Shown here: positions 3,757 to 58,651 of the stretch, piece by piece
How positions within the stretch are numbered: position 1 is the first letter of the stretch
How the letters are laid out: each line of letters opens with the position of its first letter
DNA from: Arenicellales bacterium
GTDB taxonomy: Bacteria > Pseudomonadota > Gammaproteobacteria > Arenicellales > Poriferihabitantaceae
DNA length: 64,000 nucleotides
Reading direction: 5' to 3'
Assembly (NCBI GenBank): GCA_965200715.1
Contig: OZ241374.1
Coordinates: 2,917,031 to 2,981,030, forward strand
Program-made: the position numbers and the translations under genes
Notes under the pieces: model-generated
The model's input: only the letters and a program-made list of their open reading frames with translations
Told to the model about the DNA's origin: nothing
The model's database searches: none

Positions 3757-4755
3757 TTAGAAGTCGTAACGAATGCCAATCCAGTGCTTGACTTGGTCGT
3801 CACTGCCGGCCACATCATTGTCGGTAGATCCGCCCTCATACCAGAGACGCAATCCACCGCCCATGTTGTGATACAGGCCAGCGGCAATCTTGCTGGGTTC
3901 GGCGGTTGATCCTTCGGTTTCCGACATGGAGTAGCCAAGCCATCCCGAAGTACTGTCGGAAAAGCTCATACCCACATAGCTAGTGACATACTCCTTATCG
4001 GGCTGGGCAACCCCAGAACTGTTTTCTGATTCATGTCTGCTCCATCCCAAAGATCCCCAGAATTGACCAAGCGAAACCTTGCCGGTAATCGCTGCGCGGT
4101 TATGCTCTAATCCATGTTTAGCAGTGGTGGCCGGAATGGACTTGAATGCTCCATTTTCGCTACCTGCCATTTCAGGCATTGCGGGGGTGACGACGATCTC
4201 AGTCTGATCGTCCACATCAAAGGCGGCTGCAACCGTCACATTATCCGTTGCGGCAACGCGGACACCAATACCGCCGCCATTACCGGACAGGTTGGCACCT
4301 TCACCGCCCTCATCACCGAGACGCAAATCTGCTTCTAAGGACAGCGGGCCGACTGAGTTGGAATACTTGATGGTATTGGGAGATCGAAAAGGAGTCGGAC
4401 TACCCACCGGCCCGACCGTGTAGGTTGGATCAAGATCAACCCCGACCGAGTTGTAGAAGGCACTCCACTGGTTACCGACATCAACCCGTCCGAAACCACC
4501 GGAAATCCCGGCCGTAGCAATCCGGGTAGAGGTGATACCACCGGCACCGTCATCGGTATTGGTAGCAAACTCGTAATGACCATGAGCGGTCAGACCGTTG
4601 CCCAGATCAGAACTGGCTTTGACTCCAAACCGAGAGCCAACGCCCTGGATGTCAGCCGTTGAGTCATTCGAGCCGCCCGTGTCCTCCAGGACAATTGCGT
4701 TGTTGATACGACCGTAAACAGTCGCCTCCGCCTGGGCTCCAAGCGGGATCATCAC
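3757..4755 (-). CDS. Gram-negative porin family beta-barrel (OmpC/PorB-like); 5' start unresolved
   Basis: EATVYGRINNAIV, GSRFGVKASSDLGNGLTAHGHYEF, NTIKYSNSVGPLSLEADLRL, alternating amphipathic strands, C-terminal IGIRYDF. The ORF-track start is a GVM-internal GTG that leaves only 8 aa before the AQA|E cleavage-like site. Confidence 0.85.
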   Translation of the reverse strand: MMIPLGAQAEATVYGRINNAIVLEDTGGSNDSTADIQGVGSRFGVKASSDLGNGLTAHGHYEFATNTDDGAGGITSTRIATAGISGGFGRVDVGNQWSAFYNSVGVDLDPTYTVGPVGSPTPFRSPNTIKYSNSVGPLSLEADLRLGDEGGEGANLSGNGGGIGVRVAATDNVTVAAAFDVDDQTEIVVTPAMPEMAGSENGAFKSIPATTAKHGLEHNRAAITGKVSLGQFWGSLGWSRHESENSSGVAQPDKEYVTSYVGMSFSDSTSGWLGYSMSETEGSTAEPSKIAAGLYHNMGGGLRLWYEGGSTDNDVAGSDDQVKHWIGIRYDF

Positions 4756-37967: not shown

Positions 37968-39752
37968 CTAGAGAGATCCGATCTGAAACCGAGGTCGCGG
38001 TTGATCGGGTAATGTCAGACCCAGTTGATACAGCAATAGCTGATGATCCTGATTGGGTTGTGTATACCGAGACATCACCAAACATCGTCCATCGGAGGTT
38101 GGCAGATGCACGTCCACCAGTTGCATCGAGGCAAACTTCTCCAGGATCTCCCGAGGGGTGAGCCCCGAAGCTTGTCGTTTGGCCAGATTCTTCAAGGTCA
38201 CATGCAGACAGTAGGCGATGAAGGACAGGAAGATATGTGCCTCAATGCGTTGTTCGGTCTGGTGATAGATCGGACGAATCGAGAGACTATGCTTGAGTTC
38301 CTTAAAGGCCTGCTCCACTTCGGAGAGTTGCATGTATTGTTTCCACAACTCGGCCGGATCAGTATCGGTGAGATTGGAACGTAACAGATAACGCCCTTCA
38401 CGGCGCATAGTTTGTCGCAGTTTTTCCCGTCGCAAGTGGAACGTGAACGATCCCGGTTGCTGGCCATCCTCCGGGGCAACCTCAATCTCGACTAGATGCC
38501 AGGCCCGTCCGGCTTCTTGCTGGGCTGCACCCAACTTGCGTTGCAGTTGATCCCGGCTGTTGCTTTGTTGCTGCAGCTCATGCAGACGTTTCCAGAGCTT
38601 TTTCAAACGTCTGCGACGCATGCTACGCTCCTTGAGAATCCGCCCTTCGCTGCGCACCAGGATGTACACTTCCTCTCCTCCCTCTTGCTGATGTAGCTTG
38701 ACCTGGAGCGAATCCCGAACCGACTGCCAGGGTCGGTTGAGAAAGGATTGCTCCAGCTTGCTTAGCCGTCCCTTGGGGGTACCAACCAGATAGCGCACAC
38801 CCGACGGATCAGCACGCATGGCTTCCAGGGTTTCTTCGGTCGGGATTCCACGGTCCATCACCCAGACCCGCTCCGAACGGCCATACTGCGCCTCAATCTT
38901 GCGCACGAAATCCAGCAATGTGGTCTTGTCCGAGGTGTTTCCCGGCATCACTTCATAGGCAACTGGAAACCCATCCGGCGTCACGATCAGGGCAATTACC
39001 ACCTGCACACAGTCCGAACGTTTATCCCGACTGTAACCAAACTGGCGTTTGCCAGCAAACGGCGCATCACTCTCGAAATAGGTACTGGTCAGATCGTATA
39101 GCAAGACCTCATAGCGGGCACCAAACAAGGTGCCCCAGCGTTCTTTCAAAAACGCAAAAAAGTCACGACGGTGCGGCTCCAGACGGTCCAGTACCCGGTA
39201 AAACCTATCCTTCGGAATCACGGGGTCCAGACCCAGTAGATCCCCCATCGCACAGTTCTCATACCAGCGCCGATACAGTCGCCACTCACTGCCCGGATCA
39301 ATCAGACGATAGCAGGCCTGTACCTTCAGAATATCCAGCCAACCGGTGCCCTGACGACTCGCCGGCAACCGTTCCTTCCAGAACTCGTCCAGACCCAGAT
39401 ACTTCCAGATCGTCAGTGCCAGCCAGCAGGCCCCCCATTGGCGTGGACGATGCAACTCCATCGCATCCACACAAATCTGAATACTCTCAAAGGGCAACTC
39501 CGGTGCTTCCCGGTCATCCGGAAACAGAGCCACCTGCCGTGACTCTGCTTCCCCCGTGATCACCTCAATGGCCCGAGTCCAGGCCGCCTTCTGGCTGTTG
39601 TTGATCTCACCAAGATACAGAACCTGACGCTGTACGGTACGGGTTGGAGACAACCGAATCGATTCCATAATACTGAAATAACGGTAGTGAACTCCGTCCT
39701 TGTAGCGACTTTTTTCTCGAATGTACATCGCCAAATCTTCGCCTTTGTGCAC
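37968..39752 (-). CDS. IS1634-like (IS4 superfamily) transposase
   Basis: 594 aa. YIREKSRYKDGVHYRYFSIMES, YDLTSTYFES, SRDKRSDCVQVVIALIVTPDG. Short inverted AAGTCATTGATTTT motifs at about 37903 and about 39808 may mark the ends. Confidence 0.85.
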   Translation of the reverse strand: MHKGEDLAMYIREKSRYKDGVHYRYFSIMESIRLSPTRTVQRQVLYLGEINNSQKAAWTRAIEVITGEAESRQVALFPDDREAPELPFESIQICVDAMELHRPRQWGACWLALTIWKYLGLDEFWKERLPASRQGTGWLDILKVQACYRLIDPGSEWRLYRRWYENCAMGDLLGLDPVIPKDRFYRVLDRLEPHRRDFFAFLKERWGTLFGARYEVLLYDLTSTYFESDAPFAGKRQFGYSRDKRSDCVQVVIALIVTPDGFPVAYEVMPGNTSDKTTLLDFVRKIEAQYGRSERVWVMDRGIPTEETLEAMRADPSGVRYLVGTPKGRLSKLEQSFLNRPWQSVRDSLQVKLHQQEGGEEVYILVRSEGRILKERSMRRRRLKKLWKRLHELQQQSNSRDQLQRKLGAAQQEAGRAWHLVEIEVAPEDGQQPGSFTFHLRREKLRQTMRREGRYLLRSNLTDTDPAELWKQYMQLSEVEQAFKELKHSLSIRPIYHQTEQRIEAHIFLSFIAYCLHVTLKNLAKRQASGLTPREILEKFASMQLVDVHLPTSDGRCLVMSRYTQPNQDHQLLLYQLGLTLPDQPRPRFQIGSL

Positions 39753-39982
39753 CCCATTTTCAAGTCAAAAGTCGGCAACACAACCGGTTTTCAGGCCCCC
39801 AAGAACGAAAAATCAATGACTTATAGACAGATTTGCGCCAAAATTAGTCGAAATTTATCAGTTTTTCAGACGAGTTGCGAAGGTCGGGTTAGTTCGTCCT
39901 TGACGCCCTTGAAAGACCCGGCTCGAATCGAAGGTGGAATTGTAGTGTTATCTTTCACATTAATAAACCAGAACGCAATTCC

Positions 39983-44058: not shown

Positions 44059-44350
44059 TGTTATTTTCCGCAATAAGTCAGAACTCGATTCTCAGATTAA
44101 ATTGAAAGGAATGGGACAGTTTGTCCCGGATTGTGCTGGATAGTTTTGGTTTCTTTTTCCAAGTAGTCATGGTATCCCCATTATCCGCACCGGATTGGTC
44201 CAATCGGTAATTGGAGTCGGCTCTCGGACGGATGGTATTTCGGCTTTCGAAGTAGTGGAGATGGAGGCGATGGTAGCGGATTGGATTTGGGCTTGAGAGA
44301 TTCCCATTGAGCCGGGTTCTGCTACCCGCTCAAGTCGTCGGGTAGGAGTC

Positions 44351-45196
44351 TCAGCCTGCAGTTGAGGTTTTCTGTTGGCTCGGGTTTCGGAGCAGGTCGT
44401 TCCAGTCTTTGGCATTTCCGGGCAGCAGTCTCGAGACTCGAGGATCGGTTTTTAGTGCCTGATAGGCCAGTTGTGCAGGTGGGTCGGCATCGTAGCCACA
44501 CACGATGGTGTTCAGATTCAGGCGATTGAGCCATTCCGGTACGCGATGAGCGAGTCCGGCGGTTGAGACAATCAACTGCTGCTGGGGTGCGATCGGCAGG
44601 CAAGCGACCGACAGTGCATCGATTGCGGATTCGACCAGCAATACCGAGTCGCATTGTGCGGGGTTGCGGGTCGGATCGGTGCTGATCCAGAAGCTACCGA
44701 GTGGTTTACGGGTGCCTTTGGTGAGTCCTTTGAAGGGGTATTGGGGATGGGTGCCGACGAGTTCGGCGCCGATGGCCTGCTGGTGTGCATTGCGCATACA
44801 GAATACCGCATTATTGCGTGAGTCGGCCTCAATCAGTTGTTGACGATGGTACTGTTCAATCAGGTTCGGATGCAGTTTGCGATGCTGACACAGGTAGTGT
44901 TGTACGGTGGACCAGTTTGTTTGGGGTATTGGCATGACCTCGGCGAGTGGTTGCAGCCATTGTAGGGCCTGCTGGAAGGTGCACATGTGGTCATGCATAA
45001 CCAGATCGATGGCACCGCCGCCCCCGCACTGCATGAGGTGATCATAGAACTTACTGCCGTTGATACTAATGATACTGGATGCTTTTTTCCATTTGGCCGG
45101 ATCCCGGGGTGAGCGCTGATAGCCCAGCGCTGTGGCCACCTCGGGTAGCGGTAATTCACGCAGTTGACGGATTTGTGCGGGGGATCGGCGTTTCAT
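44351..45196 (-). CDS. DUF3991/Toprim-domain protein (primase-like)
   Basis: 281 aa. INGSKFYDHLMQCGGGGAIDLVMH.. then LLVESAIDALS..VCGYDAD, a Toprim-like acidic motif. Its ATG overlaps the upstream stop (ATGA). Confidence 0.55.
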   Translation of the reverse strand: MKRRSPAQIRQLRELPLPEVATALGYQRSPRDPAKWKKASSIISINGSKFYDHLMQCGGGGAIDLVMHDHMCTFQQALQWLQPLAEVMPIPQTNWSTVQHYLCQHRKLHPNLIEQYHRQQLIEADSRNNAVFCMRNAHQQAIGAELVGTHPQYPFKGLTKGTRKPLGSFWISTDPTRNPAQCDSVLLVESAIDALSVACLPIAPQQQLIVSTAGLAHRVPEWLNRLNLNTIVCGYDADPPAQLAYQALKTDPRVSRLLPGNAKDWNDLLRNPSQQKTSTAG

Positions 45197-45996
45197 GACT
45201 GGATATCCAGGATGGCGTTTTGCACATCTTCGAGTTGCACCTGGTCGTGATGTTCAATGGCCGCGGCCGACAGGGCCAGATGGGCAATGCGGTCGATGCG
45301 TCGGGGCACTCCGTTGCTGGCCTGGGCGATGGCTTCGATGGCATTGGCCGGGAATAGCGGAATCTCGGCACCGGCCAGTCGCAGACGATGTTCCAGATAG
45401 CGCGGGATTTCCTCAGCTTCGAGACTGCCGATATGACAACGTGCGGTAATGCGCTGGCGGAGCGACTCGAACACATTCATCTCGAGTCGGGCGCGCAATT
45501 CGGTCTGTCCGACCAGGATCAGGCAGAGGCGATATTCCGAATCCATTTGGAAGTTGGTGATCAGGCGCATTTCCTCCAGCGCTTCGGTGCGCAGATAATG
45601 CGCTTCATCGATGACCAGGATGGACAGCTGACGGGCTTCCCGGTGTTGCACCGAGAACTCTTCGCGGAGCGACAGGAAGGCCTGGGCCCGGTGGCGTGCT
45701 GGCGGCACTCCGAAGGCCTGGGCGATGACCTGATACAAATCGAGAATGCTGCCGGTGGTGAGCGACACATAGCGGGGACGATACTCGCCCGAATGCAAAC
45801 CGGCAAACAGCTGACGGCAGACCGTTGACTTACCACAGCCCGGCTCGCCGGTCAACAGGCCAATCCCACCACGGGCTTGCCTCAGTTGACCCAAGCGCAT
45901 CAGGGCTTCCTGCTGACTCTGGCTTTGGAACAGTTGATCCGGGGGCAGGCTGGGTTCAAACGGATAGCGGTTCAAGGCAAAATGGTGCTTATACAT
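45193..45996 (-). CDS. ExeA/TniB-like AAA+ ATPase (transposition helper)
   Basis: MYKHHFALNRYPFEPSLPPDQLF...LLTGEPGCGKST (Walker A) ..LSILVIDEAHYL (Walker B). I trimmed the start to the ATG at 45996, which overlaps the transposase stop. Confidence 0.75.
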   Translation of the reverse strand: MYKHHFALNRYPFEPSLPPDQLFQSQSQQEALMRLGQLRQARGGIGLLTGEPGCGKSTVCRQLFAGLHSGEYRPRYVSLTTGSILDLYQVIAQAFGVPPARHRAQAFLSLREEFSVQHREARQLSILVIDEAHYLRTEALEEMRLITNFQMDSEYRLCLILVGQTELRARLEMNVFESLRQRITARCHIGSLEAEEIPRYLEHRLRLAGAEIPLFPANAIEAIAQASNGVPRRIDRIAHLALSAAAIEHHDQVQLEDVQNAILDIQS

Positions 45997-46785
45997 GGTC
46001 CGGCTCCGTATCGAGTGGGTCTTCGAGTTTGCGAAAGGCAATCGACTGGGTCGGCTGCTGACGCTTGATACGGGTATTGGCTGCCAGATCGACCACGGTG
46101 GCCTGGCCAACCGGTTTGCCCCGGTAGACCACTTGCCGAGGACGTTCGGGCGGTGCCGATGGATCAAACCGCACGGTGACGGTTTCCCCGACCAATACGG
46201 CCTCCACTTCATAGATCACATTTTCGATCTGGATCGTGCGGTCTTTCTTGACCTTGCGCTCGACTTCAAACTGGAACAGATCGCTCAGATCACTCTCGGC
46301 AACCCGGATCTCGGTGCTACACTGCGCCCATTTGTCAAACGGGGTCAGACCCCCGAGTCCATGATGCGGGGTGCGGTGATACTCGCCTTCAACCCAGGCT
46401 CGGAAATGCCGATTCAAGGCCTCGAGACTCTGCAAGTGGCATGCATCGATGCCGCGCAGCACCTGCTGTCGGACCCGCTGCAGATAGCGTTCTATTTTGC
46501 CCTTCCCCGCAGGCTGATAAGGCTTCGCAAACAGGATTGCGGTGCCCAGTTTGGCACACACCAGATCCAGCTGGCGAGAGCGAAAGGTCGACCCGTTATC
46601 GACATACAAGCGCTGCGGAATGCCGCGTCTCTCGACCGCCTGACGGAACACCGTCAGGAAGTCCCGGGCGGTTTCGGAAAAGGCAAACTGGGCATACGGC
46701 ACCACTCGCGTCGCATCATCGATGATCGCCAGTAAATAGGTCTTGCGTAACGTACCTTGCTCGGTTCGGACTTTCATGGCATGCA
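45989..46785 (-). pseudogene. DDE (rve/Mu-like) transposase, C-terminal fragment separated by the RIT insertion
   Basis: ..YLLAIIDDATRVV..LYVDNGSTFRS..KPYQPAGKGKIERY is an rve catalytic core. It continues the frame of 50573..51082 once the insertion is removed. Confidence 0.8.
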
Positions 46786-46882
46786 ATAATGCCGAGTTAA
46801 TAGTAATGCCGAGTAATGAGGAACGAAGCCTTGATTGAAGTGGGTTGAAGCCTATTTTTACTCGGCATTACTGTTGATCTGA

Positions 46883-47872
46883 TTACCCCCCAAGGACTGC
46901 CATTAGTCCGTCCTTGACGCCCTTGAAAGACCCGGCTCGAATCGAAGGCGGAATCGTTGTATGCATGATCTGCAGTTTTTCAGCCGGAGTCGCATTCAGA
47001 TACGCTTCGGTCGATTTGATGCTCGCATGACCCAGCCACAAAGACACCTTACGAATGTCACCTGTCGCATGCAATATCGCCATTGCTGAGGAATGCCGAA
47101 GGCAATGTGGGGTAATGTGCTTGTCGGCCAGCGAGGGAACGAGTTTGCTCGCCTCGGCAACATATTTGCCGAGCAGGTAGGAAACGCCATCGGTACTCAG
47201 TGCGCGACCTCGAGCACTGACAAATAACCAACGGCACTCGAGGGTCGGTCGCACGGCCAACCAGCTACCCAGTGCATCGATGGTCTCGTTCCAAAGTGGT
47301 AGTTCCCGTTCACGCCGACCCTTGCCCATGACCCGTACGCTGCGAAATTCGGGACCGACTAAGCTTTCCAGCGTCATCGAGGTTAACTCGGAAACCCGAA
47401 GCCCAGCGGCATAACACAAGTGGAACATCGCCCGGTCGCGAACGCCGCCGGGTTGTTTGATGTTCGGGGCATCCAGAATCGCTTGCACCTCGTGGGCCTC
47501 CAGCCAATCAATCAGTGGCCTTTCGGTGCGCCTTTGCACAATCGCTTGCACTTGTCTTGCCTGTTCCAGGCAGGTCGGTTCGCGATATTCAAGATAATGG
47601 AAGAATGACTTGACCGATGCCAGTCGAACGTTGCAGGTACTGCGACGGCAGTTTTGCACATGTTCCAGTGAATTCAACCAATCGTACACCAGTGCAGCAC
47701 TGAGTTGTTCGATCTTCAGTTGGCAAGGACGGATACGGTGCTGTTTTGCTGCAAAGCGAACGAGTAGCCGGAAACTGTCGGTATAGCTTTGCACGGTGTG
47801 CTGACTGCAACCCCGCTCATTGGGCAGATGCTGTTGCAGAAAATCGCTCAACAAGGTGGCCAGCTTAGTCAT
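46883..47872 (-). CDS. Tyrosine recombinase (RIT third gene)
   Basis: 329 aa. ..RAMFHLCYAAGLRVSEL.., HCLRHSSAMAIL, LGHASIKSTEAYL (R..HxxR..Y pattern). Confidence 0.85.
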   Translation of the reverse strand: MTKLATLLSDFLQQHLPNERGCSQHTVQSYTDSFRLLVRFAAKQHRIRPCQLKIEQLSAALVYDWLNSLEHVQNCRRSTCNVRLASVKSFFHYLEYREPTCLEQARQVQAIVQRRTERPLIDWLEAHEVQAILDAPNIKQPGGVRDRAMFHLCYAAGLRVSELTSMTLESLVGPEFRSVRVMGKGRRERELPLWNETIDALGSWLAVRPTLECRWLFVSARGRALSTDGVSYLLGKYVAEASKLVPSLADKHITPHCLRHSSAMAILHATGDIRKVSLWLGHASIKSTEAYLNATPAEKLQIMHTTIPPSIRAGSFKGVKDGLMAVLGG

Positions 47873-48785
47873 GGTAACCTCCGAGTCGATTGAAGTGATC
47901 CTGTTCCGTTTGAGCGGCGATCCGGTTCAGCAGTACCGGTGTCGATTGCAGATACCAATAGGTGCTTGCCACCCCGTTGTGTCCCAACGTCGTAGCAAGT
48001 GCCAGAATGTGGCGATTGACGTCGGCACCGGCAGGCAGGTTTTCCAGCGATCGGACGACAAATGAATGGCGCAACGAGTGCAACGTCGGCCGATAACCGG
48101 CCCGTTCATCACGAATTCCCGTGTCTATGGTCAGTCGTCGGAACATGGCTATTGCCTGGGCCGCGCTCGGAGGGCGACCGGAAGCGAGAATGAATAGATG
48201 TTGGTCGGTGCTACCGAGCTGGTTCCGAACCGCAATGTATCGGTTCAGTTGATCGACGGTAGTCGGGGCAAGCACGACGATCCGAGATTTCTTGAATTTG
48301 GTTTCCCGAATGAACAGACCGTCGGGAGCAACATCGTCAAGCGTCAGTCGGATGGCTTCGCCAAGGCGCATTCCGGTAACCGCGACCAGACCGAACAGAC
48401 AATACCAGGTTAACCGAGTGATGGTAGCCGCCGGCGAAATACCGAGGGCCGCCGACAACACGGTTCGAATCTGCTCGACCGACATCAGGTGCGGTGCGGG
48501 TCGAGTGTTCGGGTATGGCCCGAATGCGTCCGCGGGCGGCACTGCATGCCGCGAATCCTCAGCGTGTAGCCAAAGCGCAAAGGAATGCGCGACTCGCAGT
48601 CGCCGCACCCGAGCATAGCGGGAAATCCCTTGCGATGCCCACTCCAACAGAGTGTGTGAGCAGATAAACTCGTCGTTGACTGCAAATCGCACAAACGATC
48701 GGAGGATTTTCGCATGACCTTCGAACCGGTAGCCCAGTTGCTGCTTGGTCTCGACATATCGTCGCACATGATCAGCCAGCTTCAT
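47865..48785 (-). CDS. Tyrosine recombinase (RIT second gene)
   Basis: GMRLGEAIRL, HSLRHSFVVRSL, LGHNGVASTYWYL. I trimmed the start to the ATG at 48785; the ORF track extends to 48848. Confidence 0.8.
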   Translation of the reverse strand: MKLADHVRRYVETKQQLGYRFEGHAKILRSFVRFAVNDEFICSHTLLEWASQGISRYARVRRLRVAHSFALWLHAEDSRHAVPPADAFGPYPNTRPAPHLMSVEQIRTVLSAALGISPAATITRLTWYCLFGLVAVTGMRLGEAIRLTLDDVAPDGLFIRETKFKKSRIVVLAPTTVDQLNRYIAVRNQLGSTDQHLFILASGRPPSAAQAIAMFRRLTIDTGIRDERAGYRPTLHSLRHSFVVRSLENLPAGADVNRHILALATTLGHNGVASTYWYLQSTPVLLNRIAAQTEQDHFNRLGGYHD

Positions 48786-50367
48786 TGCACTCCTCCCCGA
48801 TCCACGCTTGAGCGACTTCCTGCAACATGGTCGTATCGGTTTTCGCATAGATCATGGTGGTTTGAACACTCCTGTGTCGAAGTAACGATGCGATCACCTC
48901 TAACGAAGCACCGGATCGGAGCAGTGTCGTCGCCTGACTATGTCGAAACACATGAGCGCCGCGGTTACCAACAGTCTCGATCCCTGCACGGTCCAGAGCA
49001 CGGTGCGCAATCGAAGTCACGGTGCCCGGATGGCCAAGTGGCCGATACGGCGCACGTGCGGTGTAAAATAACGCTTGTGTAGCTAGGTTCGACTGGTCTT
49101 GCAGCGGGCGCGAGTGGCGGATGTAGTGGCTGATTGCGTCGCCCACATCCTGAGGAAGCGGTAGCACGGTCCAGCACGGTGATTTGCCTAACACACGAAT
49201 CTCGGCCCGATCCCAGTCGATATCGCCGATGCGCAAGGCAACAATATCGCCCGCACGAAGTCCCAACCGTGCAAGCAACAATAATACGGCCCGATTGCGG
49301 ATCCCCACGCGATGGTCCTTACAGGTTGCAATCGCACGTTCGACGTCGTCAGCACTGATGTACTGAGGCAAGGATGCGAGCCGCCACTGTGGGATGGTCG
49401 GCACGGCAGCGAGTAGCGCCGGAGATACGCGGTCTTCGAATACCAAAAAGCGCAGATACATCCGCGTCGCGATTGCGAGTCGCCGGATATAAGGCAAGGA
49501 ACGCCCGCTGGTTAGCCCACCGTTGAATACCTGATGAATCATGGCCGCGTTGTAGGCCTGCGGATTGTCTCCAATTTCCGATTGCAACAAACGTATCAGC
49601 AATCGGTAGCGACGAATCGTCTTTGCCGTGATACCACGATAATGCTCAAGCCAGTTGGCAAAACGCTCCATCTCTTCGGTCATCATGGGCTCATGGTGTG
49701 GTGGCTGCCACCCGCTCACTTCACCAATCTCGATGAGATAATTCACAAAACCAGACACTTCCTTGAGCGAGGCAGGAGTGCAATAACGCCTCCTGAAGCC
49801 ATGGAACATGCCCGGAATGGAACAGACCAGCTGTCTTTCACGAAACTGTTCCAGGGTCTGTTCGGTCAGTTCCGTGAGACGAATTCTTGACCAGTGCAAC
49901 CAGATAATCAGGCTGGACGACGCAGTATGGTAGGGTCGAATAGTCAACTCGGAATAACCACTGGCGCGCAGTCCATCAAGGTATTGGTCGAGTAGCTGGA
50001 AATTGTGCTGCAGGTCGTCTGGCACCGGAACCCGATTGGTGCGTTCAAGGAAGCAGATGAAACGGATTAGGTTCGGTGCAGAACGCCGTTTTCGCCATTG
50101 AGAAAATCCGACGGGTGCCGGAACGCTCGTGATGCATCGGCAGTCATGTTGCAAAAAACGCTCAATGACCGTTGCGTCAATCTGCTCAAGTGCCATGCCG
50201 GACAGTTCAAGCCAGGTGAGAAAATGGCGGATCAGCGGCCTGCTATTCTGTATGCTTGACTTGGCAACCTGCATGGTTTTGAAGTCGTCGGCAAACTCGT
50301 CAATGATCGCATTGAAGTCATCCCGCAACATTGGGGCAACGGGCTGACAATGATGGCTTTTAGACAT
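48772..50367 (-). CDS. Tyrosine recombinase, large (RIT first gene)
   Basis: GLRAGDIVALRIGDID, HVFRHSQATTLL, LRHRSVQTTMIYAK. I trimmed the start to the SD-preceded ATG at 50367. Confidence 0.8.
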   Translation of the reverse strand: MSKSHHCQPVAPMLRDDFNAIIDEFADDFKTMQVAKSSIQNSRPLIRHFLTWLELSGMALEQIDATVIERFLQHDCRCITSVPAPVGFSQWRKRRSAPNLIRFICFLERTNRVPVPDDLQHNFQLLDQYLDGLRASGYSELTIRPYHTASSSLIIWLHWSRIRLTELTEQTLEQFRERQLVCSIPGMFHGFRRRYCTPASLKEVSGFVNYLIEIGEVSGWQPPHHEPMMTEEMERFANWLEHYRGITAKTIRRYRLLIRLLQSEIGDNPQAYNAAMIHQVFNGGLTSGRSLPYIRRLAIATRMYLRFLVFEDRVSPALLAAVPTIPQWRLASLPQYISADDVERAIATCKDHRVGIRNRAVLLLLARLGLRAGDIVALRIGDIDWDRAEIRVLGKSPCWTVLPLPQDVGDAISHYIRHSRPLQDQSNLATQALFYTARAPYRPLGHPGTVTSIAHRALDRAGIETVGNRGAHVFRHSQATTLLRSGASLEVIASLLRHRSVQTTMIYAKTDTTMLQEVAQAWIGEECNEAG

Positions 50368-50572
50368 AAGATATTCTCCGAAATAACCAAGAATATAGCC
50401 TGCCTGTCCGCCGATGTCGAAACGGCATAGCACCAGACAATGGCGAAGAATATGGCCAACAGTAATGCCGAGTAAAAATAGGCTTCAACCCACTTCAATC
50501 AAGGCTTCGTTCCTCATTACTCGGCATTACTATTAACTCGGCATTACTGCATTAATGCCGAGCTCGACATTA

Positions 50573-51082
50573 ATGCAGGACGTCAGCCTGCCATAAGGAA
50601 TTCGATCGCTCATAGGCGAAGCGTCGGCGATCGTGCACCAGCGACTGCTCCGGCGAGACCAGCAGGCCTTCCTGTTCGAACAACCGGTGAATCGTGGTGC
50701 GCGGCAAGGGCACCGCCGCATCGACCCGACCGGATGCATGAGCCTGCTGGATCACCATGCGGGTACTCCAATGCGGATGCTCCTGCTTGAGCGACAGCAA
50801 GATCTCTATCACCTCCGAGTCGAGCTTACGCGGACGCTTGCGGTCCGAGCGGCGTTTCGGCTTGAGCGCCTCAAAACCACCGGCTTTATATTTGACCAGC
50901 CAGTCATACACCGTGCCGGCACCGAGCCGACTCCGGGTCGAGTACGGAATGCGGTACTCCTGCTCGGCAATCTTGCGGATTTCACGCGACACAGACCCGG
51001 CTGGCTCATGCACCAACGGGGCGATGATTCCGAACCGAAATAAGGCAATTTCATGCGCTTTGTCGTGGGCTTGGTCAGACAT
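50573..51082 (-). pseudogene. DDE transposase, N-terminal HTH fragment ending at the RIT junction
   Basis: ..ALFRFGIIAPLV..RTIHRLF..LWQADVLH, then the element-derived stop. WQAD is the start of the catalytic domain. Confidence 0.8.
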
Positions 51083-51177
51083 GATGTTCTCTCCAGTAAA
51101 AACACCGATTGTGCGCCGGATCCCCCCAAATCTCGACTACCATCGAGTGTTGGCAGGCCAAACCCGCTCCTGTCCCA

Positions 51178-51732
51178 TTACGGAGGAAGGTGAAATCCAA
51201 GCGGAATCGACAGCTGCGGCAGCTGCGCTTGACCAAGTTTGCGCAACTCGCACAACACCGCTTCCGATGACAACCACTCGCGGACCTCCACCACCTTGGG
51301 CGGCGTCAGACTGAGCACCAGCAATAATCCCGATAAGGCCGATAAGCACTGATGAACCCGAGTGACTCGACGCTTCAAGGTCCGCCACAGATGCTCCGGA
51401 TGCGGATGGTTCGGGTAGAGAATACGCACCGCCTCCATCAACGACGAGGCCGTCTCGGCTAGCGCAACCTGACGCTCCAGCTCCGCTAACGTACCGCGAT
51501 AGCAACTGGCCAGGAAAATCGGCAGGGCGCTGAAGGTCTTCTGACACCGCTGACAGTACCAGCGAGCGATCTTGATCCCATGCGGATACTTGCGGGTATA
51601 GGTACCATGCTTCTGGGCCCCACATTCCTGACACGATAACCCTTGGCAACACGGCGGCGGCGGTGCCTTTTTCCAACCGGCTGTGCTAACATATTCCTCA
51701 GCGGTTAAATTGGTTATATGTGGATATTGCAT
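51178..51732 (-). CDS. Cys-rich zinc-ribbon-like protein of the transposon
   Basis: MQYPHITNL..CCQGLSCQECG...RWYCQRCQKTF. I trimmed it to the ATG at 51732 because the first 17 codons of ORF 51178..51783 run into the end of the Tn5-like IS. Confidence 0.45.
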   Translation of the reverse strand: MQYPHITNLTAEEYVSTAGWKKAPPPPCCQGLSCQECGAQKHGTYTRKYPHGIKIARWYCQRCQKTFSALPIFLASCYRGTLAELERQVALAETASSLMEAVRILYPNHPHPEHLWRTLKRRVTRVHQCLSALSGLLLVLSLTPPKVVEVREWLSSEAVLCELRKLGQAQLPQLSIPLGFHLPP

Positions 51733-51768
51733 TTGACCGCTCACGGCCCGGCGGTGATGACGCGCGGG

Positions 51769-54185
51769 CTGCCTATTAGCCACAAGTTTTGTCTGGACGT
51801 AAATTCGGATATAGGTATTCCGGATCCAAGCGCTTGAACAGTTCGTAAGCTCGGCCGTAGGCGCCGAGTTCGATATATCCGGTCCAGATCACTTTGTGAC
51901 CGGGCGGTGGGTCGTTTTTCCGGGCCAGATAGCCGCCGAGCATGGCCATGGTCAATACCGCTCGACCCAAATTCGAAGGCGCAGGGCGTTTGCGGTCGAG
52001 GGCAACCAATTCCAGCATGCGGATTTCCAAATGGGAGAATAACACCTCGGCCGGCAACTCCGGCGTGTCCCGTCCCAACAGCACCATCGCATGCAGGCGC
52101 CAGGCAATCACCGCCTTGATCGCAATCGCCCGTTCCAGTCGATCGGCCGTTTGCAGATTCAGGAATTCGGCCTTGCATCCGGATTTCAGGATCCGGTGCC
52201 AGTCCTCAATCCGCCAGCGCAAGCGGTAGTACTCCAGTAGCTGCTCGGCAGCCTCAGCATGCTCGACCGGTAGCGTGGTCAGCAGAAACCATTCCAGCGG
52301 ATCACTGCCATCACGGGGAACCGAGGTCTCCTGTACATGCACCAGGTTCAAGGGCACGCTGGTCGAGCGGGAAGAGCAAGGGTTGGCCAAGATCGTCACT
52401 GCCTGCCAACGCAATTCGCACTCCGCCAGTCGGGCTTCCCGGAACGCTTTCTCCCGCTGTCCCCGGGCCGACCGGCGGGCCGAACTCCGCATCACCTCAA
52501 TTTCCACTCGGGCCTGGGCTGGAGCCTGACGGACCTGGTCAAATAGACGGGCACCCTGCGCACCCAGCACTCGATTATGTCTCGCCCGAAACAGCAAATC
52601 CACATGCTCCAACTGCCGGCATTGTTGGAAGATCTCGTAGGCATCTCCTTCCCGGTCCATGACCGCAATGCAGGACACATCCGGCACCCGTTGTGCCGCT
52701 TGAGCGCTGTCCTGTACACCCCGAATCCAACGCTGGGTCTTGCTCTTTGCATCTTCTCCCGATGGCTCTTTTGGAGACTTTGGAGCATCAAACTCCAGAT
52801 GCATCACCCCCAACGGCACGCCACTCGTCGACACCGCCAGAGTACTGTGCAGATGCAACCCCAGACTGCCTTCGCTAGACTGGTTCTTGCCAATCAGACC
52901 CAGACCTTCACAGGCACCGTGTGTGGCAAAGTTCAGATCCGTTCCGTCTTGGATCAGCAACACCGAAGACTGGTTCGCAATCCGCTCAATGGTCCGCTCA
53001 CGATGCACCGCCAGAATGTTCTCAACCGACACCTCCGACTCGGCCGGATGTTCGATCATCCGGTAAAAACCGGCCACACTCGCCGCGTCCCCTTTGGCCG
53101 CCGCCGGAAACGAATCCATTGGCGATTCCGCCATCCTATGGGCACTCTTGACCAGTCGTTTACTCAATCGTTTATCTCCCAGCGGCGCACCGCCAAATTC
53201 CTGTTCGCTCCAACTCCACCGATCCAAACCCGCGGCCACATCCCGTTTGACGACCTCGGGTGGGCACACCCCCAAAGCCGCTCGCCAGTCGGCGCTCAGT
53301 GGACGACACCAGATGGCCCGTTTCGGCACCCCTTGTCCGGCGGGCGAGAAACGCCCCCGACCGGCCGTTTCACCGACTTTGGTCCAGCCCGCTGCGAGCA
53401 GCGAATGCCCGGTGTGCTGCTGCGCATGCACAAAGGTCTCGACCAGCACCGGACGATAGCCGTAGTGTCGCATAAAATCCTCTCCGAGTCTGCCCACAGT
53501 CTGGGCTAATGCCCACGAGGCGAGATTTTGACAATGCACCTCGGGACGAATCAGAAAGCGGCTGAGATTGGTCACCAAATGCCGCGGCGGATGCCCGGTC
53601 TCCCAACCAATCCACTGATCCCGGGCCTTCAGTAGATAGGCCGAGGCGGAAAATCCCAACCCACCCAGCCAGCCATGCTCCGAACCGATCAGATAGCGCA
53701 TCTGGGCTCCGGCTTGAAACACACTCCCCATCGGGTGTTCCCGGGCCATCAGTTCGTTGAAGATGCGATGCTGGTGATCATCGCAGACCCGAGACACATG
53801 TAACCCCACAATCCGATCCACCCGATCGGGCACCTCGACCGGACTCGGCACGGCCTCCTCCAGCCGTTTCGGATGACCACGAGCCCCGCTACCGGTTGGA
53901 CTGACCGGCAACGAGATCTTGCCCGCCGTCTCGAGTTTCGCCAAGGCTGCACTACAACTGCTGATCCGGGGCAATCCACCGGCATCCTGAAAATCAAACT
54001 GCTCGCACAGGGCCAGGGCTACTTGTCGACGGCTGGTACAGGTCTCTGACTCCAATAGCGCCGAGAGCCAAGACAATCTCTCTGGCTGTAACAGGGTTTC
54101 GCGAATGGGGGTCAGTGCGTCCATGCACCGGAATATAGCCCTTCCGATAAGTTATGTCAAGAGATTATTTGTGTAGAAGAGGCAG
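51769..54185. mobile_element. Tn5/IS50-like IS (IS4 family) with DUF4338-transposase fusion
   Basis: Left end CTGCCTATTAGCCACAAGTTTTGTCTGGAC. The reverse complement of the right end is CTGCCTCTTCTACACAAATAATCTCTTGAC. Flanked by the direct repeat CGCGCGGG (51761-51768 and 54186-54193). Confidence 0.8.
51776..54124 (-). CDS. Tn5-like DDE transposase with N-terminal DUF4338-like domain
   Basis: 782 aa. N-terminal ARDQWIGW..NLSRFLIRP..VLVETFV. C-terminal YYRLRWRIEDWHRILKSGC is the Tn5 YREK-region signature. Confidence 0.85.
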   Translation of the reverse strand: MDALTPIRETLLQPERLSWLSALLESETCTSRRQVALALCEQFDFQDAGGLPRISSCSAALAKLETAGKISLPVSPTGSGARGHPKRLEEAVPSPVEVPDRVDRIVGLHVSRVCDDHQHRIFNELMAREHPMGSVFQAGAQMRYLIGSEHGWLGGLGFSASAYLLKARDQWIGWETGHPPRHLVTNLSRFLIRPEVHCQNLASWALAQTVGRLGEDFMRHYGYRPVLVETFVHAQQHTGHSLLAAGWTKVGETAGRGRFSPAGQGVPKRAIWCRPLSADWRAALGVCPPEVVKRDVAAGLDRWSWSEQEFGGAPLGDKRLSKRLVKSAHRMAESPMDSFPAAAKGDAASVAGFYRMIEHPAESEVSVENILAVHRERTIERIANQSSVLLIQDGTDLNFATHGACEGLGLIGKNQSSEGSLGLHLHSTLAVSTSGVPLGVMHLEFDAPKSPKEPSGEDAKSKTQRWIRGVQDSAQAAQRVPDVSCIAVMDREGDAYEIFQQCRQLEHVDLLFRARHNRVLGAQGARLFDQVRQAPAQARVEIEVMRSSARRSARGQREKAFREARLAECELRWQAVTILANPCSSRSTSVPLNLVHVQETSVPRDGSDPLEWFLLTTLPVEHAEAAEQLLEYYRLRWRIEDWHRILKSGCKAEFLNLQTADRLERAIAIKAVIAWRLHAMVLLGRDTPELPAEVLFSHLEIRMLELVALDRKRPAPSNLGRAVLTMAMLGGYLARKNDPPPGHKVIWTGYIELGAYGRAYELFKRLDPEYLYPNLRPDKTCG

Positions 54186-54433
54186 CGCGCGGGCCACTCT
54201 CTTTCTTCTGAATGGGTGCTCTGTACCTGCCTACACCCGTGCACTCAACGCGCCGTTGAACCGCAACCAACGGGTATATACGATCTGGATGATTAAATCA
54301 TAACTACTGAAAACTGACTGCTTGGAAAAAAGAAGCAACTCAGTCCAGTTTATACCAGAATACAGGAAAAATCATACTGAATGAATTCGAACCAAAAACA
54401 CTACTTTCTCTCAAAATAGTGTGGGAAATAACA

Positions 54434-56058: not shown

Positions 56059-58651
56059 CTGCCCATTAGCCATAAATAGTGTCACAGCAAAGGGGTAGAA
56101 ATTCTATGATTTTTCCGGATTTTGGACAAAATCCGTAGCAAAAACACCACAAACAAGATTGAATTGAACGGCAATATCGGACTCATTCGGTAATCATGCG
56201 AGACACTTCACTGCCGATGCCGAGGGCTTTGGCCCGTTCAATCACTTGCGCATTGCCGTACAGATAACTGTATCCTTCCCACATGATCTGACTGCCGGCA
56301 GGGGCATCATTCGGCCGGTTGAGGTAGCCACCCATCATGGCCAGGATATTGACCGCCTGTCCGAGATTCTCCGGTAACTTTTGATTCCGGAAACGGGCAA
56401 AGTCCCGAATCACCGCCAGTTCGACTTCGGAAAACAGCACCGATGGGTCCAGTCCCGGAGTCTCTCGACCCAATAGGGTTAGGGTCGCAAGCCGCCAGGC
56501 AACCACAGCGCGCAAGGCGATGGCACGTTTCAAACGTTCTGCGGTGCGGTGCGCCAGTAATTCCACATCACAACCACTTTTCAGGATGCGATGCCAATCC
56601 TCGATGCGCCATCGCAGCTTGTAATACTGAATCACGTCAAGGGCCTGTTGGGTATTCGAAATCGGTAAACTGGTATACAGCAACCACTCCAGGCGCTCGG
56701 CATCACCATCCGGTTCCTCACTCTCCCGAATATGCACCACATGCAATACCACCGGCTGATCCCCCAATTCCTGCTTGCGCTTCTTGGGAATGGGGATCGT
56801 AACCTCCATCCAGCGCAACTCGCAATCGGCAACCCGGGCTTCGTGTCCGAGGACCGCTTTCTGAGTACCGGTGGCACGACGTGCCGATTGTTTCGGCACC
56901 CAAATCTGTAGCCGATGACGCACCGGCTGAGAACGCATCTGGGCAAACAAGGAACCCCCAACAATCCGCCGGTTATGTTTGGCACGCACCAGTAGATCGA
57001 GATGATCCTTCCGTTTGCGGTGCTCATCAAACACCTTGATATCATCCCCCTCCCGATCCATGGTGGCAATCAAGGTAACCTGCTCCAGATCACGGGCCAG
57101 TTCCGCACTGTCTTTGAGGCCTTCAATCCAACGCAATGTCTTCGGCTGCTCTTCCTGATGTCCCCGGTCGATCTGCAGGGCGGCAACCCCAAGCGGGAGT
57201 CCGTCACCCGAAACTACGTAGGTACTGTGCAAATGCAGCCCCAGCGTGCCTTCACTATGCTTGTTCTTGCCAATTCGACCCAAACCTTCACAGCCTGGAT
57301 GGCTGGCAAAATTCAAATCACTGCCATCCTGGATAATCAGGGCAACCGACTGCGCCTGCATGCGTTGTCGGGTGCGCTCCCGATGCCCGGCCAGGATGGT
57401 CTGCGCATTGATCGCCTCTTCATCCGGATGTTCAATTAATCGGTAATAGCCTGAAATCATCGCACTGTCTCCTCGTGTTGCAGTAAAAAATGTGTGCGAG
57501 GGCATGCCGGTCATGACCTCAATAATCCGGATCAGTCGCTGCACCCGCCGAGCATCCCCAAGCTGAGCTCCGGCAAACTCCTGCTCCGCCCAGTTGCGCG
57601 AATCAATGCCCTCCCAGGCGTTCAAAGGCTTGACCTTGCGAATCCCCAACTCGGCACGCCAGGCCGAACCTAATGGTTTCACATAGATGGCCTTTTTCGG
57701 CACCGGACGGCCGCTTCGATCCCGACCATACGTCTCACCAATGTGCTCCCAACCACAAGCCCGATAACTGATTCCAGAATACTCGGGGGAAACGTAGGTC
57801 TCGATCAGAACCGGACGAATACCATACTTCAGATGATAATCCGAAACCACCCGACGAGACAAGAATCCGAGCGACTTGGAGGCCAGATTCGCACACCGAA
57901 TGTGCGGACGAATCAGAAACCGGGCCATGCCGATGATACGCTGAAGGTTGGTCCTCCGTTCGGCTTGTGACCAGCCAATATACTCCTCTCTTGGACGTTG
58001 TACCAGGGTGGCGGAAGCGATCAGGAATCCACCCAGTACTCCGTGTTCCGAACGAATCAGATAGCGAATCTGCCAACCGGCCCCCCGAGCACTGCCGAGC
58101 GGATGTTCCAGGGTCATTAAGGATCGCCATTGCCGCCGTTCTAAATCGGTGCGGACCGGAACCACTTCTAGTTGCTCGATCGCATCCACTCGCGAGGGGA
58201 CTCCCAGAGCGGGCGCAACCGGCTCATTCGCCGGATTGATCTGCTTCGCAACCGGTTCCAGGGGTGGTGGTAGCGAAATCCGGCCTTGCCGATCAAGTTG
58301 GGTCAATGCAGCCAGACAGCTGTGACCGCGCACCTGACCTTTGGCATCGAGAAAATCAAACTGTTCACAGACTTCCCGGCTAATCGCCCATCGGGTAGCC
58401 GGATCCTGTTCGGTGATGATTTGCCGCACTCGCTGCAGATTCTCGGGTTCGAGCAGAGTCGCCTTGATCGGGATGGGTTGATACATGGTAGAATCGGTGT
58501 CTATTGAATCGGAATGGCGATCATCCCTCATTCGGTCCGATTTGTCAATACCGGTAAAGAAAAAAAATCAAAAAATATTTGCCGGTCAGACCGTCAATTT
58601 TATCGAACCGATTCTCCCTTTGCTGTGACGCTATTTATGGCTAATAGGCAG
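56059..58651. mobile_element. Tn5/IS50-like IS (IS4 family) with DUF4338-transposase fusion
   Basis: About 36-bp imperfect terminal inverted repeats: CTGCCCATTAGCCATAAATAGTGTCACAGCAAAGGG, and the reverse complement of the right end CTGCCTATTAGCCATAAATAGCGTCACAGCAAAGGG. An 8-9-bp target duplication (G)GGCGGACC sits at 56050-56058 and 58651-58659. Confidence 0.9.
56183..58531 (-). CDS. Tn5-like DDE transposase with N-terminal DUF4338-like domain
   Basis: 782 aa. EEYIGW..MARFLIRP..VLIETYV at the N-terminus. YYKLRWRIEDWHRILKSGC at the C-terminus. A moderately diverged paralog of 51776..54124. Confidence 0.85.
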   Translation of the reverse strand: MRDDRHSDSIDTDSTMYQPIPIKATLLEPENLQRVRQIITEQDPATRWAISREVCEQFDFLDAKGQVRGHSCLAALTQLDRQGRISLPPPLEPVAKQINPANEPVAPALGVPSRVDAIEQLEVVPVRTDLERRQWRSLMTLEHPLGSARGAGWQIRYLIRSEHGVLGGFLIASATLVQRPREEYIGWSQAERRTNLQRIIGMARFLIRPHIRCANLASKSLGFLSRRVVSDYHLKYGIRPVLIETYVSPEYSGISYRACGWEHIGETYGRDRSGRPVPKKAIYVKPLGSAWRAELGIRKVKPLNAWEGIDSRNWAEQEFAGAQLGDARRVQRLIRIIEVMTGMPSHTFFTATRGDSAMISGYYRLIEHPDEEAINAQTILAGHRERTRQRMQAQSVALIIQDGSDLNFASHPGCEGLGRIGKNKHSEGTLGLHLHSTYVVSGDGLPLGVAALQIDRGHQEEQPKTLRWIEGLKDSAELARDLEQVTLIATMDREGDDIKVFDEHRKRKDHLDLLVRAKHNRRIVGGSLFAQMRSQPVRHRLQIWVPKQSARRATGTQKAVLGHEARVADCELRWMEVTIPIPKKRKQELGDQPVVLHVVHIRESEEPDGDAERLEWLLYTSLPISNTQQALDVIQYYKLRWRIEDWHRILKSGCDVELLAHRTAERLKRAIALRAVVAWRLATLTLLGRETPGLDPSVLFSEVELAVIRDFARFRNQKLPENLGQAVNILAMMGGYLNRPNDAPAGSQIMWEGYSYLYGNAQVIERAKALGIGSEVSRMITE

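Follow-up and report, generated by a model that had tools for sequence, protein, structure and literature searches.

Recombinase-in-trio (RIT) elements were first defined in Cupriavidus and then widely surveyed. The elements described by Van Houdt et al. (2009, 2012) and Ricker et al. (2013) carry overlapping ritA, ritB, and ritC genes, in this order, and long inverted repeats, and palindromic repeats at RIT ends were already remarked on in 2017 (PMC5737581). Published insertions lie in radC of an integrative and conjugative element, in the tnpA gene of IS66, and in the transposase gene of a Tn6049-like transposon of Acidithiobacillus ferrooxidans. Transposition has never been reproduced, and in 2023 the target specificity, empty-site formation, and movement of RITs were listed as "not tested" (PMC10214605); no mechanistic RIT paper turned up in our literature search. 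Here we describe a RIT in a 64-kb window of an Arenicellales bacterium (64,000 nucleotides of contig OZ241374.1, assembly GCA_965200715.1; coordinates below are those of the window). Its empty site, its natural variants, and its relatives in other genomes indicate that the 5-bp repeat flanking the element is probably a shared crossover (central) region rather than a target duplication of the classical kind. The exact empty site, the 6-bp center, the arm pair with its inner core, and the inversion variants are absent from the accessible RIT papers; Ricker et al. (2013) may already describe part of them.

The element occupies positions 46786 to 50577 (3,792 bp) and is inserted cleanly in a transposase gene, and its identity as a RIT is close to certain. 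This identity, first proposed in a preliminary description of the window, is borne out by the overlapping trio of tyrosine recombinase genes with the longest gene first, by the long terminal inverted repeats, and by the match to the RIT literature, and every feature named in that description is present in the sequence at the coordinates it gave. Structurally the element is no different from the published RITs, and it likewise sits inside a gene of another mobile element. Insertions of RITs into transposase genes are already in print, so the location as such is not new. The claim that the window element is the published Acidithiobacillus Tn6049::RIT was dropped because nothing in the data shows it, and the sole cluster member with a name is a fragment of a cyanobacterial MAG. 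The features of the element are as follows.

46781..46786, plus strand: left junction center ATGCAA, of which the first 5 bp equal the target and the sixth base is A versus G in the target
46787..46873, plus strand: left terminal inverted repeat, 87 bp and perfect, with arms a1 (46787-46796) and a2 (46804-46813) in direct orientation with a 7-bp spacer and arm a3 (46861-46870) inverted
46883..47872, minus strand: ritC, 329-amino-acid Xer-like tyrosine recombinase with a SAM-like N domain and a catalytic domain (HCLRH...H...Y)
47865..48785, minus strand: ritB, tyrosine recombinase of 306 amino acids from the ATG at 48785; the mechanical open reading frame (ORF) reaches 48848
48772..50367, minus strand: ritA, 531-amino-acid tyrosine recombinase with two predicted N-terminal SAM-like (core-binding) regions
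50460..50546, plus strand: right terminal inverted repeat, 87 bp, with arms a3 (50463-50472), a2' (50520-50529), and a1' (50537-50546)
50547..50552, plus strand: inner center CTGCAT, which on the opposite strand reads ATGCAG like the target 6-mer and which completes a dif-like core within the element together with a1' and b
50553..50572, plus strand: back-to-back arm pair, b (TAATGCCGAG) and b' (CTCGACATTA), which with the flanking centers forms a 30- to 32-bp palindrome
50573..50578, plus strand: right junction center ATGCAG, which includes the second copy of the 5-bp repeat (50573-50577)

The ends are built from repeated units. Segment 46787-46873 is the exact reverse complement of 50460-50546, as had been described, and at 90% identity the inverted repeat covers 119 nt (46781-46899 and 50434-50552). 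The 10-mer TAATGCCGAG or its complement occurs in seven exact copies in the window, all of them at the end positions first reported, together with a variant at 50563; all eight copies are at the element ends and none are elsewhere. When one mismatch was allowed, 16 matches were found in the window compared to 3.8 expected, and none of 100 shuffles reached 16. Reading inward, the ritC-side end consists of the flank, ATGCA, A, a1 (TAATGCCGAG), 7 bp, a2, about 47 bp, and the inverted a3. The ritA-side end consists of the flank, TGCAT, TAATGTCGAG, CTCGGCATTA, ATGCA, G, a1, 7 bp, a2, and so on, so read containing a complete arm-6-bp-arm site (50537-50562) and then a second arm back to back. This complete site is the core a1'-CTGCAT-b, and the junction half-sites share its central sequence. 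ATGCA is indeed present at both junctions (46781-46785 and 50573-50577), and a third copy, inverted, lies inside the element at 50548-50552. The repeat belongs to a 6-bp unit, which is ATGCAA at the left junction and ATGCAG at the right junction, at the inner site, and in the empty target.

Deletion of 46786-50577 rejoins the host gene in frame, as had been predicted. The 433-amino-acid product (45989-46785 joined to 50578-51082) is an rve/Mu-transposase-C protein, 100% identical to a database protein (P0001), and the break lies between LWQADV and LH; in our own reading, the Asp of LWQADV is the predicted first catalytic Asp of the host transposase. The uninterrupted host gene, which the preliminary description had suggested looking for, was found in three independent metagenome contigs (L075 to L077) with ATGCA in single copy. 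In all three, P0001 lies within an intact four-gene transposon and the predicted 169-bp empty site is exact, with the sequence GGC-ATGCAG-GACG at its center. The window flanks overlap by 5 bp on these contigs, which means that ATGCA is single-copy in the empty site and that the insert is 3,792 bp. Because an empty site with a single ATGCA exists, the insertion is clean. The host features are as follows.

44059..54433, minus strand: host transposon carrying the RIT, about 4.2 kb without its two insertions; its extent is taken from identity to L075-L078
45989..46785, minus strand: C-terminal part of the host transposase (rve core, Mu-transposase C)
50578..51082, minus strand: N-terminal, helix-turn-helix (HTH) part of the host transposase, ending ...LWQADVLH

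Natural variants of this RIT were found by exact look-up of the RitB and RitC sequences in other assemblies. The same RIT is present elsewhere at the same site of the host transposon, 99.8% identical, with 5 to 7 differences in 3,760 bp. One copy (L082) has the orientation seen in the window. In a long-read contig (L083) and in a contig assembled with k = 141, which exceeds the repeat (L085), the interior is inverted and the arm pair stays on the HTH side. Another copy (L084) has two palindrome-bearing ends, with the HTH flank on both sides. A single sample (ERZ25067984) held the empty transposon together with three of the RIT-bearing forms. The markers that shift between sites are the A/G sixth base of the three centers and a C/T difference in the b arms. 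L085 is what the window would become after inverting two segments, one from the left center to the inner center and the other comprising the inner center, b, b', and the outer center, and it is equally what the window would become after excision and reintegration through the other core. The first of these inversions would by itself turn the window into the arrangement seen at the ritC-side end of L084, where the A marker is at the inner site. In our reading, these assembled sequences give direct evidence that site-specific recombination has taken place in nature, and exactly at the three 6-bp centers. The marker reassortment is compatible with in situ inversion and with excision followed by reintegration alike, and the two could not be separated.

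Scanning one genome per species for the a1-N7-a2 motif gave 74 loci in Alpha- and Gammaproteobacteria, Acidobacteriota, Verrucomicrobiota, Bacteroidales, Desulfobacterota, and metagenome-assembled genomes (MAGs) of Firmicutes. The a1-N7-a2...a3 layout is common to all 74. Their Rit proteins are 50 to 64% identical to those of the window (about 30 to 35% in one Bacteroidales element), and the 10-mer arms are the only strongly conserved part of the ends, a pattern that would fit recombinase-binding arms. Stitching of adjacent blocks yielded 83 ends from these loci. First, the back-to-back arm pair was present in 33 of the 83 ends, and in 17 of these 33 the outer 5 nt around it were exact complements, with a 5-mer that varies between elements. 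Second, the flanking repeat is not peculiar to the window, where the preliminary description had considered that it might be coincidental. The flanking 5-mers were identical in 14 of 26 complete copies, compared to 0.9 identical pairs on average and no more than 6 when partners were permuted; the inverted third copy equaled the flanking 5-mer in 9 of the 26, and all three 5-mers agreed in 8, again with a sequence that differs between elements. Third, the base after the outer 5-mer was the element's sixth base in every copy listed, with the left junction of the window as the exception, which means that the unit is 6 bp. Finally, the palindrome-bearing end adjoined ritC in 14 complete copies and ritA in 10. 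The two inverted repeats are thus interchangeable, and a rule that the palindrome is always on the ritA side was ruled out by the 14 copies; a rule that the inner 5-mer always equals the left 5-mer was likewise ruled out by the relatives' ends.

Near-identical copies with unrelated flanks show where the element stops. Identity starts on one side with either the sixth base or the first base of a1, and on the opposite side it extends across the arm pair and includes the outer 5-mer. This means that the outer 5-mer is carried along by the element or else is a requirement on the target, and in several genomes it was constant among copies with unrelated flanks. In one such set, copy c3 of CAXXPN has an inverted interior and, compared with its sister copies, carries the inner 5-mer at the outer position and vice versa, which is the product expected from opening a palindromic junction a1'-c-b/b'-c-a1 at either core. 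In copy c2 of OZ252020, joining the flanks restored the reading frame though the flanking 5-mers are unequal (GACGC and TCCGC); two 5-mers that agree in length and differ in sequence are what crossover-region heterology or a carried-over footprint would leave behind, and not what repair synthesis would. The first 200 bp of L072 hold a full symmetric junction, a2'-N7-a1'-ACGGAA-b-b'-TTCCGC-a1-N7-a2; outward of it lies a solo inverted repeat, past which there are no rit genes. In its sequence this locus resembles a free-form junction of the predicted kind that has become fixed in a chromosome.

The same end plan was seen in plasmid RITs. RitB homologues (up to 46% identity) occur in 591 plasmids, and of six plasmid regions examined, five (L092 to L096) have full trios and the one in pRL7 has two recombinase genes. 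The five RITs are from Salmonella, Methylocystis, Sphingobium, Mameliella, and Agrobacterium, with TTATG-type arms and RitB proteins 41 to 43% identical to that of the window. All but the Agrobacterium element, in which no long inverted repeat was found, have the end plan described above. Identity of all three 5-mers was found in two (ACATA and AGCCA), and one other has matches of 6/6 and 5/6. Since the plan recurs in plasmid RITs with other arms, it is general to RITs.

Joining the flanks of the relatives restored long ORFs for a TrwC relaxase/helicase, cut inside its Walker A motif, and for an IS91 transposase, as well as a YspA/SLOG gene in which the insertion is five codons before the stop and a short ORF without a Pfam match that is taken, on a motif alone, as primase-like. 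From these restored ORFs, RIT targets appear to be mostly genes of other mobile elements. No arm-like sequence or consensus was detected in the target flanks beyond the central 5 to 6 bp, and an apparent conservation of flanks was traced to repeated use of the same genes.

These observations can be brought together in a model that we consider the probable one, with some reserve: site-specific integration through a circular free form, with strand exchange across a 6-bp center that matches the target, and with excision and inversion at the same sites. The 10-mer arms would be binding sites for the Rit proteins, and arm-6-bp-arm would be a dif-like core cut at the borders of the 6 bp. The free form would be a circle with the junction a1'-CTGCAT-b/b'-ATGCAx-a1, that is, two inverted cores in one long palindrome. 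Either core could recombine with a matching target 6-mer, which would leave the element flanked by a shared 5 to 6 bp, an apparent duplication, and would leave the unused core intact at one end. Recombination of the left junction with the right junction would excise the element, that of the left junction with the inner core would invert the interior, and that of the inner core with the right junction would flip the 20-bp arm pair. Mismatched centers would be tolerated and would segregate after replication, so that 5-mers of earlier sites could be carried along. Arms of the a and b types may be recognized by different Rit paralogues, as are the XerC and XerD arms of dif, and the two putative core-binding domains of RitA might span a1 and a2. 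Four lines of evidence argue for reading the repeat as a crossover region: the inner inverted copy, the difference at the sixth base, the flanks of unequal sequence in relatives, and the inversions at these very sites.

Several observations weigh against this model. No circular or excised form was found in the JGI metagenome contigs when searched with the end of this element, and a generic scan of the same contigs for a full junction also found none; among the retrieved loci, a full junction is present in L072 only. A mobilome study similarly reported extra RIT coverage and no circle junction (PMC5737581). The target does not resemble the arms, which leaves recombinase binding there unexplained, and binding of Rit proteins to the 10-mers is itself predicted from the sequence. 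In two copies, L008 and OZ244830 c2, a perfect flanking repeat accompanies an unrelated inner 5-mer, and a duplication explains these equally well. Homologous recombination between copies can scramble flanks, and OZ242260 c4 and c6 share 252 bp of one flank. Finally, all recovered copies of this RIT are at one site of the host transposon, for which a single insertion followed by spread of the host transposon would suffice.

The alternative that survives best, which we nevertheless consider unlikely, is a strand-biased, copy-out, or folded single-strand (hairpin) intermediate, comparable to Tn554/SE, integron attC sites, or telomere resolvases. In this case, the palindromic end would arise from fold-back copying, and the right 5-mer would be a footprint of the previous site and not a requirement for homology. 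The single-stranded DNA of either end folds strongly (z = -5.8 and -6.1), but good folding is a property of any inverted repeat, which makes these scores uninformative. Covariation of the palindrome's outer 5 nt looks like the result of copying, and the outer 5-mer is unchanged among copies with unrelated flanks in several genomes. In addition, RIT DNA was protected from exonuclease in the study that saw no circle junction, and its authors suggested hairpins (PMC5737581), and Tn554 and SE elements bring with them a 6-bp donor-site footprint, in that 6 bp beside the element move from the donor to the new site (PMC10214605). However, a footprint without homology does not predict identical flanks in 14 of 26 copies, and the inversions and marker reassortment are the expected products of double-strand site-specific recombination.

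A genuine target-site duplication, made by 5-bp staggered cuts and repair synthesis as in DDE transposons, with the inner copy incidental, appears less likely still. It would account for the perfect repeat in the window with a single copy in the empty site, for the fixed repeat length of 5 to 6 bp with identical flanks of many different sequences, and for L008 and OZ244830 c2. The element, however, encodes only tyrosine recombinases, and tyrosine recombinases swap strands without DNA synthesis. A duplication also does not predict an inverted third copy equal to the flank or the agreement of all three 5-mers, and it fits neither the deviation of the left copy in the window, which is at the sixth base where a heteroduplex would segregate, nor the flanks of OZ252020 c2. 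The least probable alternative, that the RIT no longer transposes here and spreads just as a passenger of its multicopy host transposon, with the Rit recombinases serving mainly as an invertase at the element's sites, would explain why all recovered copies share one position, why both orientations and recombinant forms occur there, and why no other target was found in PLSDB or the JGI metagenome contigs, but it is countered by the empty and occupied host copies in the same sample, which mean recent integration or excision at least once, by near-identical related RITs in unrelated genes of one genome, and by the existence of miniature derivatives, and it is in any case compatible with integration through the 6-bp center, as it bears on present activity only.

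An extension of the site-specific integration model can be put forward only tentatively. The target would be chosen by identity to the 6-bp center, which the element carries twice, inverted, in its palindromic double core. The 6-mer could be rewritten or swapped by use of a mismatched site or by a flip of the end, and the three paralogues would divide among them the a arms, the b arms, and the arm-less target.

The proposed sites can be compared with those of other recombination systems. Like the dif site of XerC and XerD, the RIT core consists of two inverted arms of 10 to 11 bp around 6 bp, with GCAT(T/A)A and T(A/T)ATGC at the inner ends of the arms. The E. coli dif site reads GCATAA-TGTATA-TTATGT. 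The inner ends of the RIT arms resemble it, which fits Xer-like proteins, and the a and b arm types recall the XerC and XerD arms. The RIT differs in that its proteins score far under the family cutoffs, in having three paralogues rather than two, accessory arms (a2 and a3), and recombinases of its own, and in using a target without recognizable arms. Tn916 and CTnDOT have a short, possibly heterologous crossover region (coupling sequence) that segregates after replication, so that the flanks can differ. They share with the RIT tyrosine recombinase integration with a short crossover region but are large conjugative elements with a single integrase and Xis and without a trio or long inverted repeats. 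As in the Fim switch and in shufflons, inverted crossover sites flank a segment whose two orientations both occur within a population, whereas in the RIT the inverted segment is the recombinase operon and the pair of empty and occupied sites means insertion, not only a switch. Tn554, SE, and GInt islands have several tyrosine recombinases, as does the RIT, and a footprint like the carried-over 5-mers of some RITs. Unlike the RIT, they lack long inverted repeats and a palindromic double core and need additional non-recombinase proteins (TnpC, Srap, and Tfp). RIT copies, by contrast, usually have identical flanking 5-mers.

The three overlapping genes on the minus strand (50367-46883) were correctly recognized as tyrosine recombinase genes, each ORF having a Phage_integrase domain. 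The first Arg box of each was spotted by eye in the translations, and all three proteins keep the catalytic HxxRH (HVFRH, HSLRH, and HCLRH) with H and Y after it, close to the C terminus. Their best NCBIfam matches are XerC/XerD models, with 190 bits for RitC, 130 for RitA, and 68 for RitB, none of which reaches the family cutoffs of 220 to 335. Two sequential core-binding domains are the hallmark of RitA and an extra C-terminal helix is that of RitC (PMC8138268). RitA has SAM-like matches at residues 39-96 and 147-197 (numbering of the 553-amino-acid ORF; E = 3e-7 to 2.5e-5, with no stretch passing singly), and the C-terminal tail of RitC is present, by sequence. The ritB/ritC overlap is 8 nt (ATGACTAA) and the ritA/ritB overlap is 14 nt with ritB starting at 48785; the overlaps in the RIT literature are 4 to 8 bp. 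The ATG at 48785, and not 48848, is most likely the ritB start. The 306-amino-acid RitB is on record in 13 contigs by exact-sequence look-up, and the 327-amino-acid ORF has no exact match on record, which would be because its start is wrong.

The host transposon carries four genes, for a 184-amino-acid ORF, the DDE transposase, an AAA_22 ATPase, and a DUF3991/Toprim protein. Tn6049-like transposons are small and encode a GspA/ExeA-like ATPase beside a DDE transposase (PMC2864759); the window host, with its rve/Mu-C transposase, AAA_22 ATPase, and DUF3991/Toprim protein, is set beside Tn6049 by description only. The mechanical ORF of the ATPase (45193-46212, 339 amino acids) overlaps the 3' end of the transposase gene. 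Its true start is probably internal, since gene calls in the related contigs give 267 amino acids. The second insertion relative to L075 is an IS4-family element at 51770-54185 (ORF 51776-54124, minus strand), which encodes a 782-amino-acid transposase with Tn5-like DNA-binding and DDE domains and is flanked by a 9-bp duplication, CGCGCGGGC. Another 782-amino-acid IS4-family copy lies 2 kb away (ORF 56183-58531), and the same insertion sequence is found elsewhere in L075. In L078, at position 4159 (window 49041), a full copy of the host transposon is inserted in ritA of this RIT, which means that the two elements interrupt each other both ways.

A 58-bp segment at 39889-39946, directly downstream of an IS1634-family transposase gene (37968-39752), is 93% identical to the 3' end of ritC (46903-46960). 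It had been proposed (as 39889-39948) for comparison as a second junction, a use to which it could not be put, as it holds only this 58 bp of the ritC 3' end and no inverted repeat. Judging from its sequence, the segment probably remains from a further RIT copy that was wrecked by rearrangement. The window is rich in insertion sequences and also contains porin-like and Slam-like genes. An Rfam scan of the 64 kb gave no matches, and a megablast search of the PLSDB plasmids with the element found no match.

Other observations concern the relatives. RITs of at least six phyla (L001 to L074), many of them from long-read MAGs generated by the same sequencing projects, share the identical pair TAATGCCGAG-N7-TAATGCCGAG; identical arms despite 50 to 64% protein identity suggest that the arms are strongly constrained or that transfer across phyla has taken place. 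Two miniature RITs, L004 309-634 (326 bp) and L027 4537-4873 (337 bp), consist of little beyond the ends and the arm pair and are candidate nonautonomous elements. L004 has exactly matching flanking 5-mers and keeps a short ritC remnant, and in L027 the match is 4/5. Alphaproteobacterial RITs of different genomes occupy the same site in a YspA/SLOG (DUF2493-like) gene, a few codons before the stop (after ...KLGIPV), and in one genome paralogous TrwC relaxase genes carry RIT copies within the Walker A motif (for the two sites together, L065+L014, L012+L029, L030+L070, L037+L020, L039+L035, L016+L022, L054, and L004). Such shared sites would require a targeting specificity well beyond that of 6 bp, or else joint inheritance of element and gene. 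Copies with two simple or two palindrome-bearing ends (L031+L033, which is CAXXPN c4; L044, which is CAUVXB c1; and L084) have flanks that are homologous in inverted orientation, which points to large inversions by recombination between RIT copies. One alphaproteobacterial MAG (L023+L050, L052+L018, and L067+L010) has 7.8-kb RIT copies that are 99.99% identical at unrelated sites, with ritC apparently split by a block of about 4 kb.

RITs are widespread and their movement has not been reproduced, and this locus provides an occupied and empty pair, candidate arms and crossover sites, a predicted junction, and natural variants. Together with its relatives, it turns the open question of the RIT mechanism into specific, testable predictions. 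That RITs hit genes of other mobile elements, such as transposase, relaxase, and primase-like genes, matters for the competition between mobile elements. If target choice follows the 6-bp center, RITs would be a compact, self-contained recombinase system with a short, changeable target specifier, that is, tyrosine recombinase transposons whose target would be reprogrammable by six bases.

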